Shown piece by piece: positions 44,327 to 58,413 of a stretch of 64,000 bases of DNA. The stretch lies in assembly GCF_003018255.1 (NCBI RefSeq), contig NZ_CP027440.1, one strand, 5' to 3'. This stretch comes from Escherichia coli. Lineage in GTDB: Bacteria; Pseudomonadota; Gammaproteobacteria; Enterobacterales; Enterobacteriaceae. Every line of letters begins with the position of its first letter. Within the stretch, counting starts at the first letter, position 1. Position numbers and translations under genes: made by a program. The notes below the pieces were generated by a model, which was given only the letters and a program-made list of their open reading frames with translations, had not been told where the DNA came from and ran no database searches.

Positions 44327-44453
44327 TTTTATCAAATAGTGTTTTTTGCTGTTTCATAATGTTTCAGGTCGTTCATTATGTTTTTGATTATCAACGGATT
44401 TGCCATTTTTCTTGTTTCAGCTTGTTTCACGTTGTAGCGCTTTGTGCAACGAT

Positions 44454-45730: not shown

Positions 45731-46094
45731 TTTTTTTCGTGTTTTTTCAGTATGCGCATACTGGATAAGTGCACAGATACAACGTGAAACAATGTGCAAC
45801 AACGTGACACAATCATGAACAAGAGGCCAAAAAGAATACAGATTTATAAGTTACTGATTTTTATTGCTCAACTGGTTTTTTATACATTAGCGAATTACGC
45901 GTTAAAGCGTGCGAAAAAAGGCATAAAACAAGATTTTATGCCTTTGTATTAACATGAATTTAAATGATTTTATCCTGATTATTCCTCTTTCTGTAAACCA
46001 TACGACATCAACATTTGCCATTCACCACACTAGCGGGAACAATACGACACAATAAGACACCTGATGACTCTTTAAGAAACGAAAGGGGGCAATA

Positions 46095-47753: not shown

Positions 47754-48053
47754 ATGAAACTTAAATATTCTGGCTTAACTGCCAGTGGCAAAACTCGCAC
47801 TAAATTCATGCGCGGTGATATTTACCGCGACCAGTACGGCGGCACGGTAATGATTAAGGGCGTGGAGGAACGGCGCGTAACTTACCGCCGTGAAGGTTAC
47901 GAATATGATTGCGTGATGCCCGTTTATCAGTTCGACCGTGATTTTTCTCTGGTGCAGGCAGCGCAACGCAGCAAGCCCACCAGCAGGGAGAAAGCACGCG
48001 CCAATATTCAGGAAATAAAAAAGATGCTTAACGTATTCAGGGGTAAAAAATGA
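47754..48053 (+). CDS. hypothetical protein (island accessory)
   Basis: 99 aa basic protein, stop overlaps primase start. Confidence 0.4.
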   Translation: MKLKYSGLTASGKTRTKFMRGDIYRDQYGGTVMIKGVEERRVTYRREGYEYDCVMPVYQFDRDFSLVQAAQRSKPTSREKARANIQEIKKMLNVFRGKK

Positions 48054-49804
48054 AACTGGCACCGAACGTAAAACAGCAGTCACGCGGCATAAAACACAAA
48101 GAAACAGAAGTCATTATTTTTGCGGGTAGTGATGCCTGGTCACACGCAAAACAATGGCAGGAACATGACGCGCGTATGGCCGGAGATAATGAGCCTCCTG
48201 TGTGGCTTGGGGAGCAGCAGTTATCAGAACTGGATAAGCTGCAAATTGTGCCGGAAGGCAGAAAATCCGTGCGCATATTCAGGGCCGGATATCTTGCACC
48301 AGTAATGATAAAGGCGATTGGTCAAAAGCTGGCGGCGGCTGGTGTACAGGATGCAAATTTTTATCCTGAGGGTATGCACGGCAAGGAGGTGCAGAACTGG
48401 CGCGAATACCTGGCCCGTGAACGCCAGAATCTTTCTGATGGTCTGGTCATTGAGCTTCCGGTAAAGCAAAAGGCGCAACTTTCGCAGATGGCGGACAGTG
48501 AGCGCGCGCAGCTGCTTGCCGATCGCTTTGATGGCGTTTGCGTACATCCTGAAAGTGAAATTGTTCACGTATGGCGCGGCGGGGTATGGTGTCCGGTCAG
48601 CACAATGGAACTTAGCCGCGAAATGGTGGCGATCTATTCAGAGCACAGGGCCACTTTCAGCAAGCGCGTAATCAATAACGCCGTGGAAGCGTTAAAAGTT
48701 ATTGCCGAACCAATGGGCGAGCCGTCCGGCGATTTGCTGCCGTTCGCCAATGGTGCGCTTGACCTGAAAACGGGGGAATTTTCCCCGCACACGCCGGAGA
48801 ACTGGATCACCACGCACAACGGCATTGAGTACACGCCACCAGCACCAGGGGAGAATATCCGCGACAACGCGCCAAACTTTCATAAATGGCTTGAGCACGC
48901 AGCCGGAAAAGACCCGCGCAAGATGATGCGTATATGTGCCGCGCTGTACATGATTATGGCGAACCGGTACGACTGGCAGATGTTTATTGAGGCCACCGGA
49001 GACGGCGGGAGCGGTAAAAGTACATTCACACACATAGCCAGCCTTCTGGCAGGGAAACAGAACACGGTAAGCGCTGAAATGACATCGCTTGATGATGCTG
49101 GTGGACGTGCGCAGGTTGTCGGGAGTCGTCTTATCGTCCTGGCTGACCAGCCGAAATATACAGGCGAAGGAACGGGCATCAAGAAAATCACGGGCGGCGA
49201 CCCCGTGGAAATTAACCCGAAATATGAGAAGCGTTTTACGGCGGTAATCAGGGCGGTGGTGCTGGCTACCAACAATAACCCGATGATATTCACCGAACGG
49301 GCCGGAGGTGTGTCACGTCGTCGCGTAATTTTCCGTTTCGACAATATCGTCAGTGAGGCCGAAAAAGACAGGGAGCTACCGGAAAAGATTGCGGCTGAAA
49401 TCCCTGTCATTATCCGCCGATTGCTGGCGAACTTTACCGACCCTGAGAAGGCACGGGCTTTACTACTGGAACAGCGTGACGGTGATGAAGCTCTGGCAAT
49501 AAAGCAACAGACGGATCCGGTTATTGAGTTTTGCCAGTTCCTGAATTTTCTGGAGGAAGCACGCGGCCTGATGATGGGCGGCGGTGGCGATTCAGTGAAG
49601 TACACGACCAGGAACAGCCTTTACCGCGTCTATCTGGCGTTTATGGCATACGCAGGCAGGAGCAAACCGCTAAACGTGGCTGAGTTCAGCAAGGCCATGA
49701 AGCCAGCGGCGAAAGTTTACGGGCATGAATATATTACGCGAAAAGTTAAGGGAGTAACGCAGACCAACGCAATTACAACAGACGATTGCGACGCGTTTTT
49801 ATAA
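48050..49804 (+). CDS. primase-helicase replication protein (P4 alpha-like C-terminal NTPase)
   Basis: 584 aa, Walker A GDGGSGKST, Walker B-like LIVLAD. Confidence 0.85.
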   Translation: MKLAPNVKQQSRGIKHKETEVIIFAGSDAWSHAKQWQEHDARMAGDNEPPVWLGEQQLSELDKLQIVPEGRKSVRIFRAGYLAPVMIKAIGQKLAAAGVQDANFYPEGMHGKEVQNWREYLARERQNLSDGLVIELPVKQKAQLSQMADSERAQLLADRFDGVCVHPESEIVHVWRGGVWCPVSTMELSREMVAIYSEHRATFSKRVINNAVEALKVIAEPMGEPSGDLLPFANGALDLKTGEFSPHTPENWITTHNGIEYTPPAPGENIRDNAPNFHKWLEHAAGKDPRKMMRICAALYMIMANRYDWQMFIEATGDGGSGKSTFTHIASLLAGKQNTVSAEMTSLDDAGGRAQVVGSRLIVLADQPKYTGEGTGIKKITGGDPVEINPKYEKRFTAVIRAVVLATNNNPMIFTERAGGVSRRRVIFRFDNIVSEAEKDRELPEKIAAEIPVIIRRLLANFTDPEKARALLLEQRDGDEALAIKQQTDPVIEFCQFLNFLEEARGLMMGGGGDSVKYTTRNSLYRVYLAFMAYAGRSKPLNVAEFSKAMKPAAKVYGHEYITRKVKGVTQTNAITTDDCDAFL

Positions 49805-49809
49805 TTTTT

Positions 49810-50050
49810 TGTAAAAGCCCTCTACCCCATCTACCTGAATGAAGTAAACGCATATTATTCAACATGATAAGTGGGTAGAGGGCTAGGTAGAAGGCTAATA
49901 AAAGCTCTCTACCCCTTCTACCTGATTTTATCAGTTTCAGGTAGCAGGGTAGACGGCAGGTAGAGGAGCCCAAAAAGCTATCTACCCGCTGAAAGCCGCG
50001 CCATTACTGACATGATGAGCATTCGGGTAGATGGGTAGAGGGGGGGGAGG
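49810..50050. repeat. iteron cluster, putative island origin of replication
   Basis: at least 10 copies of GGTAGA/TCTACC-containing units in both orientations, e.g. cctctaccccatctacctga, ctctctaccccttctacctga, gggtagatgggtagaggg. Confidence 0.6.
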
Positions 50051-50082
50051 CACAACTAAAAACTTTTTAAACGAGGGGGGGG
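50040..50082 (+). repeat. two G8 homopolymer tracts just upstream of ORF 50090
   Basis: G8 at 50040-50047 and 50075-50082, the second 7 nt before the ATG. Confidence 0.4.
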
Positions 50083-50089
50083 AAAATAA

Positions 50090-50404
50090 ATGCGCATACA
50101 TCAAAATCACTTAACAAATATGCCAGCCGAAAACATGAATCAGGGGCGACAAATGACCAAAATTCGCAGAGACAGAACACAGGCAAAATATAAAGCGTTA
50201 GACATGACAGAGCTTTCCTTAAAGGTGGCAATCAAAGCGATAGACCACCACACACGGGCAGGATACGCGAAGGAACATCCCGACCTGATAAGCGCATTCA
50301 TGACCACGGCGGCGGCAAACTTTGCCACGTTGACAGAACGTGAGATTGCCGAAGCGGAACAGGTAACAACCATCAACGTTAAAACCGGAGAGGTGGAATC
50401 ATGA
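50090..50404 (+). CDS. hypothetical protein (island accessory)
   Basis: 104 aa ORF, stop overlaps SSB-like start. Confidence 0.35.
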   Translation: MRIHQNHLTNMPAENMNQGRQMTKIRRDRTQAKYKALDMTELSLKVAIKAIDHHTRAGYAKEHPDLISAFMTTAAANFATLTEREIAEAEQVTTINVKTGEVES

Positions 50405-50811
50405 CAGCACAGATAGCCGCTTACGGGCGGCTGGTGGACGACCCGCAGGTAAAACAGACCAGCAAGGGCACACCGATGACGCTGGTTCGTATGGCGGTAT
50501 CGCTGCCATGCAGCCAGGCACATGACGGACAGGCGACGTTATGGTTATCGGTTATCGCATTTGGCAAACAGGCCGATTTCCTGGCTAAACATCAAAAAGG
50601 CGATGTTGCCAGCGTATCCGGCACGATGCAGGTAAGCCAGTGGACCGGACAGAACGGGGAAACGCGGCGGGGGTATCAGGTTATTGCAGACAGCGTAATC
50701 AGTGCCCGCGCGGCACGTCCAGGCGGGAACAGACGCAAAACCACAGGCACACAGGGTAATCAGCCACCAGCGGGAGGCGATGACCCTTACGGTGACGGTA
50801 TTCCGTTCTGA
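50401..50811 (+). CDS. SSB-like single-stranded DNA-binding protein
   Basis: 136 aa, OB-fold-like N-terminus, Gly-rich linker, acidic tail ..DDPYGDGIPF like SSB DDDIPF. Confidence 0.55.
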   Translation: MTAQIAAYGRLVDDPQVKQTSKGTPMTLVRMAVSLPCSQAHDGQATLWLSVIAFGKQADFLAKHQKGDVASVSGTMQVSQWTGQNGETRRGYQVIADSVISARAARPGGNRRKTTGTQGNQPPAGGDDPYGDGIPF

Positions 50812-50821
50812 GGGGGTGACG

Positions 50822-51070
50822 ATGGTACATGACCGCATAGCGGAGGAACTCGAGGCAAAAGGCTTTTACCGGAGGGCGTCGGCGCGATGGGGTGAAGTCA
50901 TGCAACTGGTGGAGACAGACAAGGAACGGCATCAGGTTACGATGCGACGGCTGGAATGTTCCAGGAAGGCACAGAGGCCACCGGAGCCGCCAACGGAGAA
51001 CTACGCAGACCTGAGAAATGCAGTAAATCGCACTTACGCAGACATGGGGCTGAGCAAATTAGCAGAGTAG
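50822..51070 (+). CDS. PerC-family-like transcriptional regulator
   Basis: 82 aa from internal ATG with SD gaggggg; ..LEAKGFYRRASARWGEVM..TDKERHQVTMRRLEC.. (recalled PerC-like pattern). Confidence 0.4.
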   Translation: MVHDRIAEELEAKGFYRRASARWGEVMQLVETDKERHQVTMRRLECSRKAQRPPEPPTENYADLRNAVNRTYADMGLSKLAE

Positions 51071-51141
51071 GAATATCAGAACCACACCACGCAGCCGGAG
51101 CAATCCGGCTTTTTGTTATTTTTTGTAAATTATTTGTTCGT

Positions 51142-51158
51142 GGTTGTTCCACGTTGTT
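51142..51158 (+). promoter_or_regulatory. copy of TTGTT(C/T)CACGTTGT motif upstream of capsid operon
   Basis: gttgttccacgttgttcac; similar motifs near 44423, 45782 (inverted) and 58385. Confidence 0.35.
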
Positions 51159-51374
51159 CACTGAGCGGATCGGCATATTTTACCCGAACTGAATCATGAT
51201 TATTCTCGCCCGTGGTGCCAGGACGCTGGGGCCACTTTCCCGCCTGTTAATGTGCTCGCCAATATTCATTACCAGGCGGGAAAACGATCGGTGCGATTGC
51301 TGATTTCCTTATGAAAAACGGTTGAGTGTTTGCCGCGTCCTGGAGTTCCTTACTTAACCCCAGGACTTTTTTTT

Positions 51375-52532
51375 ATGCCGAGAATAATCGAATTACGCCA
51401 GCAGAAAACCGCCATTAAAAATCAGATGCGCGACATGCTGGAGAACGCTGAAAAAGAAAACCGCAGTCTTAACGATGCTGAGGGCGCAAAATTTGACGAA
51501 TTACGCGCTAAAGCTGAATCCCTCGATAAAGACATTTCCCGCCTTGAAGCCATTGCAGACGAAGAGCGCAGCAAGCCAGGTAAAAGCAGCCAGACCACTG
51601 ACCCCGCAGAACTACGCAGCTACATTCTGACAGGTGAAACCCGCGCATTAAGTACAGGCGTTCCCGCTGATGGTGGTTATACCGTTATCCCCGAACTGAA
51701 CACCGAAATCATGCGAATGCTGGCGGATGAATCCACCATGCGCCGCATCTGTACCGTGAAAAAAATCAGCAGCAACGAGTTTAAGCAGCTTGTTTCCGCT
51801 GGCGGTGCGACCGTTAACCACGGTGAAGAGGGTAAGGCACGCGAACAGACCAGCACCCCGCAGATTAACGAGGTGAGCATTAAGCTGTATCCGGTCTATG
51901 CGTACCCGCGCACCACACAGGAAATCGTGGATTTTTCCGATGTGGACATCCTTTCATGGCTGACGGGTGAGATTGGCGACACCTTCACGGAAACCGAAGA
52001 AAGCGATCTGGTTGTGGGCGACGGTGACAAAAAAGCAAAAGGTTTTTTATCCGTACCCCGTGCAGAGAAGAACGACAAAGAGCGTGATTTTGGTACGTTG
52101 CAGGTAATTAAACCTTCCGAATCTCTGGCGTGGACATCTGCGGACCCGCTGATCGACCTGAAATTTGCATTACGTAAAAAATACCGCAAAAACGCGGTCT
52201 GGGTGGTTAACTCCACGACGGCGGCAAAACTCCAGAAGGTGAAGAACGCGAACGGTGATTACATCTGGCGTGACCGTTTACAGGCGGGTGATCCTGATAC
52301 GTTGCTGGGCCTTCCGGTCGAATATCTGGAGTTTATGCCTGATAACGTTATTGCCCTGGGTGACTTCAAACGCGGTTACTACATTGTTGATCACGAAACA
52401 GGTGTTCGCACCAGACCGGACAACCTCACAGAGCCGGGCTTCATCAAAATTTTCACGCAGAAATATTTAGGCGGTGGCGTGGTGGATTCGAACGCGATCA
52501 AGATTCTGGAACTGCCACAGGACGACGATTAA
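51375..52532 (+). CDS. major capsid protein, HK97 fold, coiled-coil N-terminal delta domain
   Basis: coiled-coil N-terminus then HK97-like capsid core; start taken at MPRIIELRQQK. Confidence 0.85.
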   Translation: MPRIIELRQQKTAIKNQMRDMLENAEKENRSLNDAEGAKFDELRAKAESLDKDISRLEAIADEERSKPGKSSQTTDPAELRSYILTGETRALSTGVPADGGYTVIPELNTEIMRMLADESTMRRICTVKKISSNEFKQLVSAGGATVNHGEEGKAREQTSTPQINEVSIKLYPVYAYPRTTQEIVDFSDVDILSWLTGEIGDTFTETEESDLVVGDGDKKAKGFLSVPRAEKNDKERDFGTLQVIKPSESLAWTSADPLIDLKFALRKKYRKNAVWVVNSTTAAKLQKVKNANGDYIWRDRLQAGDPDTLLGLPVEYLEFMPDNVIALGDFKRGYYIVDHETGVRTRPDNLTEPGFIKIFTQKYLGGGVVDSNAIKILELPQDDD

Positions 52533-58010: not shown

Positions 58011-58413
58011 CGTGTTGATTTAAAGGCGGCTCAATTTTGAGCCTCGTAACTGGTTGATATTTCCGGCAACCTCAATTTGAGGAGAGCGGAAACATCATCC
58101 CTCACATTCTGAATGGTCATAATGACCACGCAGGCCATCGAGGCAACCATAGCGATCATCGTTACGGTTGGAGCTTTCCGCCATTGGTGGAAAAGGTGCA
58201 CATCTGGATCATCATTACGGTGATCAAGGGTATGTAAAACCCACCAGCCTGATTAAAGGTTAACCGGAAAAAAAATCCGGTAGCCCCGTTATGGGGATCC
58301 CCATATCGACATTAACGCCCCTCATGAATTGGTGCGCTTCCCCCTGGAAAGATTACCCGCCTGTATATTTCTTGTGTCTATTTGTTCCACGTTGTTTCAT
58401 ACAGTGCACCGAA

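Follow-up and report, generated by a model that had tools for sequence, protein, structure and literature searches.

What do three small genes contribute to a phage satellite when they lie between its replication origin and its capsid operon? The question is raised by a stretch of 64,000 nucleotides of Escherichia coli DNA (RefSeq assembly GCF_003018255.1, contig NZ_CP027440.1), here called the window, of which ~44.4-58.5 kb is, on its gene content, a capsid-forming phage-inducible chromosomal island (cf-PICI) of the EcCIEDL933 type. Both the sequence and the list of open reading frames (ORFs) bear out, down to the coordinates, the three genes that a preliminary description had placed between the origin and the capsid operon, all on the forward strand:

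50090-50404, forward strand: ORF1, a phrog_1231 protein of 104 aa (from ATG 50090) or 83 aa (from the in-frame ATG 50153).
50401-50811, forward strand: single-stranded DNA-binding protein (SSB) of 136 aa, with matches to Pfam SSB, TIGR00621 and solved SSBs.
50822-51070, forward strand: PerC-like protein (PchE, group 3 type) of 82 aa, with a match to Pfam PerC.

These genes are already known: the satellite family is a familiar one, and their operon in it has been annotated and, in part, characterised. The reading that we consider probable is that they are an ECs1586-ECs1587-pchE-type operon of a cf-PICI resembling EcCIEDL933/O-island 51 (OI-51), with ORF1 and SSB having a role in replication and the PerC-like protein a role in host regulons. 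The reference for this operon is Sakai Sp7, which is the same element as O-island 51, as CP-933C and as EcCIEDL933, the prototype cf-PICI of E. coli O157:H7, and whose SSB and PchE were annotated by Flockhart et al. (2012). There, ECs1586, ECs1587 and pchE (ECs1588) are alike in order, in spacing and in their placement from primase and origin to capsid, and the encoded proteins share 85.5% (ORF1/ECs1586), 97.8% (SSB/ECs1587) and 81.5% (PerC/PchE, over 81 aa) identity with those of the window. The genes are tightly packed: the ORF1 stop and the SSB ATG share 4 nt (ATGA), SSB and PerC are 10 nt apart, and all three ORFs have good Shine-Dalgarno sequences. Among the related islands collected, the ratio of nonsynonymous to synonymous polymorphism (pN/pS) in the annotated frames is 0.26 for ORF1, 0.18 for SSB and 0.21 for PerC (first 55 codons), compared with 1.2-2.6 in the shifted frames. 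The three are therefore not chance ORFs but genes under purifying selection, and the antisense ORFs (e.g. 50140-50523) are by-products.

The second ORF, previously called SSB-like for its acidic ..DGIPF tail, is a genuine member of the SSB family. It scores 62.2 bits on Pfam PF00436 (5.5e-17; cut-off 26) and 55.3 bits on TIGR00621 (cut-off 53.95), and it matches 25 solved SSB chains at E <= 0.001, including 1z9f (6.8e-11) and E. coli 1eqq (7.8e-07); an OB fold follows from this homology to solved SSBs. The OB-fold domain (residues ~4-100) is followed by a short Gly/Pro/basic linker and the acidic tip DDPYGDGIPF, the C-terminus reading ...GDDPYGDGIPF (GGDDPYGDGIPF), and a D/E-x-IPF tip of this kind is found in nearly all of 64 distinct PICI SSBs. 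In E. coli SSB, W40, W54, F60 and W88 are the aromatic residues that stack on single-stranded DNA (ssDNA), and H55 lies at the tetramer interface. By alignment, the equivalents of W54, F60 and W88 are kept in all PICI SSB variants while that of W40 is not (three of the four aromatic contact positions). The likeness to E. coli SSB thus comprises the OB fold, these three aromatics, a flexible linker and an acidic tip ending in IPF, whereas overall identity is only 26%, and the satellite protein is shorter (136 versus 178 aa, with a much shorter linker), has a five-residue deletion before the W54 equivalent, carries Leu in place of H55 and is basic in net charge (isoelectric point 9.5).

Among 50,697 phage genomes, the best match to this SSB lineage has ~35% identity (uncultured gut phage contigs and Firmicutes phages), and relatives occur in 25 of 72,556 plasmids, mostly of Enterobacterales; since phage matches do not exceed 35% identity and plasmid relatives are rare, the lineage is satellite-specific. 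Together with the extra small ORFs that some islands have inserted at this place, such specificity could be taken to mean that the cluster is hot-spot cargo in front of the packaging module, serving anti-phage defence or interference with the helper; an SSB decoy might, for instance, titrate replication proteins of the helper or the host. We consider such a role unlikely and give it a very low probability. ORF1 and SSB are conserved, not variable, and their purifying selection and their translational coupling are what one would expect of a housekeeping function in the element. The reading was rejected because none of the three proteins matches a PADLOC-DB model at E <= 0.1 and because, among the post-origin genes of the related island EcCICFT073 expressed singly from pBAD18, only c1503 (rppA) cut lambda plaquing (PMC6739421). 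PICI SSBs have elsewhere been filed under 'Replication' (Mageeney et al., 2023; PMC10111431), as the replication reading of the operon would have it.

ORF1 is likewise a real gene, although the 104 aa first ascribed to it may be too many. The shorter form of 83 aa is the RefSeq/PGAP call in a 99.5% identical island, begins at the first residue matched by the family profile (M22), and fits the transcription start mapped in O157:H7 strain PA20 at 10 nt upstream of the 83-aa start (PMC7369912). The longer form has a strong Shine-Dalgarno sequence, GAGGGGGGGG, before ATG 50090, and this GAGGGGG(N7)ATG arrangement is homologous to that of CFT073-type variants, where only this start is possible; the window origin is, moreover, a different variant from that of PA20. 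Two runs of G8-G10 lie in the origin, at 50041-50050 and 50074-50083, of which the second is the Shine-Dalgarno sequence of ATG 50090. The runs are not of equal length in the window and in the island that is 99.5% identical to it (G8 versus G7, and GGGGGGGG versus GGGGGGTG), which could be slippage or sequencing noise and might affect translation of the long ORF1.

The label 'uncharacterised' still holds for ORF1. No relative was found in Pfam, NCBIfam or PDB sequence searches, no match in PADLOC, and none by tblastn in the 50,697 phage genomes; the only family recognised is phrog_1231, 'unknown function', which is matched over its full length (2.5e-49, profile positions 1-83 of 83) and whose signature G-x-G-Y-A-[KR]-x-H-P-x-L is present. 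Close homologues (n = 155) come nearly all from E. coli or Shigella; they vary in their basic N-terminus but hardly at all in the core, IDxxxGxGYAKxHPxLISAFMTTAAANFATLTEREIAEAEQVTTINVKTGE. The idea that the N-terminus tracks the type of replication protein was rejected, as among the few sequences inspected one N-terminal type is shared by islands with D5-type, Sakai-type and RepA-type replication genes. A profile search of 1.8 billion representatives retrieved 522 clusters of small proteins at E <= 0.001, in which the motif G-[ED]-G-Y-A-K-x-H-P-E-L is common and none of which is in Pfam, and in a wider alignment 91 of 91 members match phrog_1231 with no consistent Pfam family. From these 91 sequences AlphaFold2 predicts a two-helix hairpin with a mean predicted local distance difference test (pLDDT) score of 84 and a core at 95-98, compared with a poor model (pLDDT 63) from an earlier, shallow alignment. 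Foldseek searches with the model against PDB and BFVD gave no informative analogue of known function, so ORF1 is confidently predicted to be a helical hairpin, one with no known structural relative among PDB and BFVD.

The third ORF, said to resemble PerC-family activators, is placed in that family by Pfam PF06069 (1e-35, 122.3 bits, cut-off 22.6, profile positions 1-77 of 90); the longest ORF in its frame opens at GTG 50702. Its C-terminal ~20 residues diverge from Sakai PchE, and it ends like the c1498 allele of CFT073. That PerC occurs in allelic variants among E. coli PICIs has been noted before (Fillol-Salom et al., 2018; PMC6092414). The proposed cross-talk with host regulons is an experimental result for the orthologue PchE: overexpression of pchE raised flagellar genes 12-24-fold and reduced adhesion (Andreozzi and Uhlich, 2020; PMC7369912), and PchE represses csgD and curli, its basal expression in lysogens being low and dropping on SOS induction (PMC6265319). 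Effects on LEE, the enterocyte-effacement locus, vary within the family, as LEE1 is activated by PerC, repressed by the more distant PICI homologue EcCIMP1_025 and unaffected by PchE/CFT073-type copies (PMC11773190); according to Porter (2005) and Iyoda and Watanabe (2004), as cited in later papers, group 3 (PchE) and PICI copies do not activate LEE1.

Judging by their layout, the three genes appear to form one transcription unit. A terminator scan found one terminator only on this strand, located after PerC:

51093-51125, forward strand: intrinsic terminator T1, with its hairpin at 51093-51110 followed by a T run, AGCCGGAGCAATCCGGCT plus TTTTGTTATTTTTTG.

In O157:H7 PA20, ECs1586-ECs1587-pchE were found as one polycistronic RNA by 5' rapid amplification of cDNA ends and RNA-seq (Andreozzi and Uhlich, 2020; PMC7369912), so the orthologues of ORFs whose expression had been in question are documented as transcribed. 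T1 is kept after PerC or an ECs1589-like gene in most of 14 aligned islands, and the similarity of CFT073 to the PerC region extends through the T1 hairpin and then ends; T1 is thus inherited as one with the PerC gene.

How the unit relates to replication can be seen from what lies upstream of it and from how its members are distributed over satellites. The upstream features are:

48050-49804: D5_N/DUF5906 primase gene, identified by Pfam.
49812-50049, between the primase gene and ORF1: iteron replication origin, identified by its repeat families and position.

Direct and inverted iterons of the CTCTACCCC and GGGTAGAGG types surround an AT-rich spacer in the origin (repeat families D1-D3 and D12; inverted pairs I2, I7-I10, I15 and I22-I24), and the position after the primase fits the published origin organisation of Gram-negative PICIs (PMC6092414). 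A degenerate DNA motif scan of IMG/VR yielded 114 satellite loci with 71 distinct ORF1 sequences. In all 109 assessable loci ORF1 has a D5-type primase or RepA-type helicase no more than 800 nt upstream, and SSB follows ORF1 in 100 of 108, with the same 4-nt overlap in 92 of those. The pair stays even in islands with another replication protein, attachment site or downstream morphogenesis module. Because the replication gene is always upstream, SSB is nearly always next and the other modules are swapped, ORF1-SSB can be said to travel with the replication region. PerC was present in 26 of 104 loci and is optional overall in satellites. The term 'accessory cluster' therefore suits PerC, found in ~25% of related satellites, but not ORF1-SSB, a near-constant part of the replication region.

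Among 5426 complete E. coli genomes, ORF1 plus SSB occur in 1245, the PerC gene in 827 and the window-type capsid gene in 357-360. With 1245 genomes set against ~360 that have the capsid gene, ORF1-SSB characterises enterobacterial PICIs generally and not just cf-PICIs, whereas PerC nearly always precedes the EDL933-type capsid module, since PerC, leader and capsid start are contiguous in 351 genomes compared with 357 carrying the capsid gene. Islands with a RepA-type helicase (L002 and hits H19-H25) show ~97% DNA identity to the window from 50153 to at least 51330, where the query ended, and none upstream. As the similarity starts at the 83-aa ORF1 start codon, a module-swap breakpoint is placed at the origin/ORF1 boundary.

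From these associations we infer a role of ORF1 and SSB in satellite replication. The unit forms the far end of the early/replication region, directly 3' of the primase gene and the iteron origin. SSB would coat the ssDNA exposed by the island primase-helicase in unwinding the origin, and its conserved ...D-x-IPF tip would bring in replisome and repair proteins of the host whose usual docking partner is E. coli SSB; the satellite would thereby supply its own SSB while replicating in competition with a helper phage. ORF1, as a two-helix protein, would be made in a fixed ratio to SSB through translational coupling and, to go by its gene position, would most likely be an accessory factor of primase-type replicons. 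In the lysogen, the PerC-like protein may reprogramme the host towards more flagella and less curli and adhesion, as its orthologue does. The ORF1-SSB pair probably enhances island replication and is not essential to it.

Several observations weigh against this account. A promoter scan found no sigma-70 consensus promoter for the three-gene unit, and the promoter mapped in PA20 belongs to an origin variant whose sequence is unlike that of the window; because origin and promoter sequence differ, the PA20 transcription start is not transferable, and in the window island the three genes may be read only from upstream. SSB is missing from 8 of the 108 related islands. In EcCICFT073, rep and ori alone sustain plasmid replication (PMC6092414), so SSB is at most a helper and not a requirement. 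The targets of the window PerC may differ from those of PchE, as its C-terminus is unlike that of PchE and effects vary within the PerC family. Lastly, ~12 distant phrog_1231 genes have no recognisable adjoining SSB, with one exception, in an Exo-RecT module. A general ORF1-SSB association was accordingly rejected, and the partnership may be specific to enterobacterial PICIs.

Distant phrog_1231 genes do tend to lie directly 3' of primase genes, as in a DUF5906 contig and in an integrase-bearing element. In three IMG/VR contigs (L133, L134 and L137), such a gene lies between a 739-aa primase gene and a Q-like gene, which is followed by stx2A/stx2B; the Q-like and Stx2 identities, and hence that of the Stx2 phages, were read by eye from sequence motifs. 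Given its presence in these apparent Stx2-phage contigs, phrog_1231 is not restricted to satellites.

The exceptional contig bears on a different explanation, in which ORF1 and SSB serve recombination or repair and protect or process incoming or excised satellite DNA, like the SSBs of phage Exo/RecT modules. L047, the distant phage-like contig in question, carries in succession PD-(D/E)XK nuclease, RecT, a short ORF, SSB and a phrog_1231-like gene, with a one-base overlap between the stop codon of SSB and the phrog_1231 start. This is one case only, no recombinase is found nearby in the satellites, and there the ORF1-SSB pair always follows a primase/helicase gene and an origin; a recombination function is hence most improbable as compared with the replication function preferred here.

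A further explanation concerns PerC and the region that separates it from the capsid gene:

51111-51374, from T1 to the capsid ATG: capsid-operon leader, ~250 nt, conserved from ~51111.
51375, downstream of the three-ORF cluster: ATG of the HK97-type capsid gene.

The leader is almost invariant in 14 EDL933-type islands, regardless of the preceding gene. It contains a 17-nt inverted repeat (51236-51252 / 51267-51283), whose stem persists, with a repairing change, in one island (L096) that has a different loop, and a second hairpin (~51336-51366) followed by T8/U8 that abuts the capsid ATG and covers the sole Shine-Dalgarno-like AGGA. An 11-nt segment at 51198-51208 is perfectly complementary to capsid codons 2-5 (51379-51389), and the leader RNA is unusually structured (z = -5.06). 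An Rfam scan of 49700-51600 found no known RNA family, and the promoter scan no sigma-70 consensus promoter upstream of the capsid gene. The leader looks like a cis-regulatory element of the packaging operon, acting through antitermination or translational control.

It could be proposed, then, that the PerC-like protein is mainly the satellite's own lambda-Q-like late switch, which lets RNA polymerase start at, or read through, the terminator-rich leader into the capsid and packaging operon. PerC is the last gene of the early unit, the position of Q in lambdoid phages, and is followed by T1 and then by this conserved, structured leader without a consensus promoter; it is contiguous with the capsid start in almost every genome that has the capsid gene, and the apparent Stx-phage contigs, again by eye, have a Q-like gene after their phrog_1231 gene. 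A PerC/PchE-type protein, perhaps with ORF1-SSB, would on this proposal open the packaging leader, and the flagella, curli and LEE effects would be by-products of an anti-silencing or RNA-polymerase-modifying activity. We regard the late switch as having a small chance of being correct, and the same slight likelihood attaches to this wider version. About 75% of related satellites have no PerC, a PerC gene of 98% DNA identity precedes a wholly different late leader in CFT073, and the conserved part of the leader begins beyond T1 and persists behind other genes too (L062, L096 and the Sakai type). The low expression of pchE in uninduced lysogens and its fall on SOS induction, cited above, also speak against a late activator. 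Overexpression of alpA alone yields cf-PICI capsids, which also counts against the switch, though a cascade through PerC would be compatible with it.

The leader also holds three 10-bp-phased TTGTTC repeats. Tandem repeats of this kind, TTGTT(C/T)NNNG in 10-bp phase, occur at four sites in the island, and the strict pattern has 3 matches in the window compared with 0.33 expected:

44412-44440, forward strand: repeats just upstream of int.
45775-45815, reverse strand: repeats between int and alpA.
51134-51159, forward strand: repeats in the capsid-operon leader.
58382-58397, forward strand: repeats at the right end of the island.

Sakai Sp7 and L002 have repeats at all four of these positions; CFT073 has them at three and lacks those in its different late leader. 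The repeats are candidate sites for AlpA, an excisionase-like regulator, or for the arm-binding domain of the integrase; their presence at both island ends and in the int-alpA gap points to AlpA or Int as the binder, in which case one of the two would make direct contact with the late leader.

The setting of the operon agrees with the cf-PICI assignment made at the outset. Integrase and AlpA come first, followed by small early genes, a DUF4222 protein, the primase, the iteron origin, ORF1-SSB-PerC and a head/packaging module consisting of HK97-type capsid, prohead protease, portal, head-closure and connector proteins, HNH, TerS and TerL. All features of an EcCIEDL933-type cf-PICI are thus present (int, alpA, pri-rep with iteron origin, and an own capsid-to-TerL set in ~14-15 kb), and the ORF map, the annotation of the relative, Pfam and the comparison with Sakai Sp7 showed no tail or lysis genes. 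The relative, the 99.5% identical island of E. coli OkiPb01677 (L001), sits in tqsA and has the same RefSeq annotation; the window island is evidently inserted in tqsA too. The DUF4222 protein (99 aa, 47754-48053) overlaps the primase start and is an orthologue, at 94.9% identity, of RgdR (ECs1581), which was identified by Flockhart et al. as an OI-51 regulator of type III secretion and motility. A DUF4222 (RgdR-type) gene precedes the replication gene in nearly all related satellites of the IMG/VR sample. A related PICI with the ORF1-SSB pair, in E. coli 13E0725 (L005, NZ_CP020092), lies inside the terminase large-subunit gene of a prophage, an arrangement that Mageeney et al. (2023; PMC10111431) describe as a 'helper-embedded PICI'.

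The finding itself adds little, as RefSeq already annotates the genes, transcripts of the orthologous operon have been mapped and PchE has been studied in O157:H7 motility and adhesion. What is added here is that ORF1-SSB is a near-constant, translationally coupled pair after a primase/helicase gene and an origin, and that PerC is optional but tied to the EDL933-type capsid. Two questions retain interest, namely why nearly every enterobacterial PICI has its own divergent SSB translationally coupled to a conserved phrog_1231 protein, and whether the PerC-type gene acts in the satellite's own cycle. If the late-switch proposal were true, PerC-family proteins would have a native function within a mobile element's life cycle.

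With the PerC of enteropathogenic E. coli and the PchA/B/C (group 1) of enterohaemorrhagic E. coli, the window PerC shares the PF06069 family, all of them being on horizontally acquired elements; PchE differs from these in repressing curli and adhesion and raising flagella, and the window copy is a short variant. A weak similarity over the N-terminal ~50 residues links it to ANR (AraC negative regulator, Aar; NF033650, E = 0.0024), for which its 17.7 bits fall below the cut-off of 32; an ANR-like, repressor-type action has been proposed by Pick et al. for the EcCIMP1 PerC-like protein (PMC11773190). Compared with Sakai Sp7, the window primase is another allele (43.5% identity), the origin and promoter sequences differ, the insertion site is tqsA instead of roxA-phoQ, PerC has 82 instead of 90 aa with a different C-terminal end, and Sakai carries an extra 74-aa ORF (ECs1589) before the capsid leader. 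EcCICFT073, a classical PICI that does not form capsids, has the same trio (c1496-c1498) after a D5-type primase and an origin, with 98% DNA identity over the PerC gene and T1 and a homologous Shine-Dalgarno/ATG arrangement for ORF1. Downstream it lacks the complete HK97-type set of head and terminase genes and has lambda-like capsid/decoration genes and rppA in its place, preceded by a late leader unrelated to that of the window.

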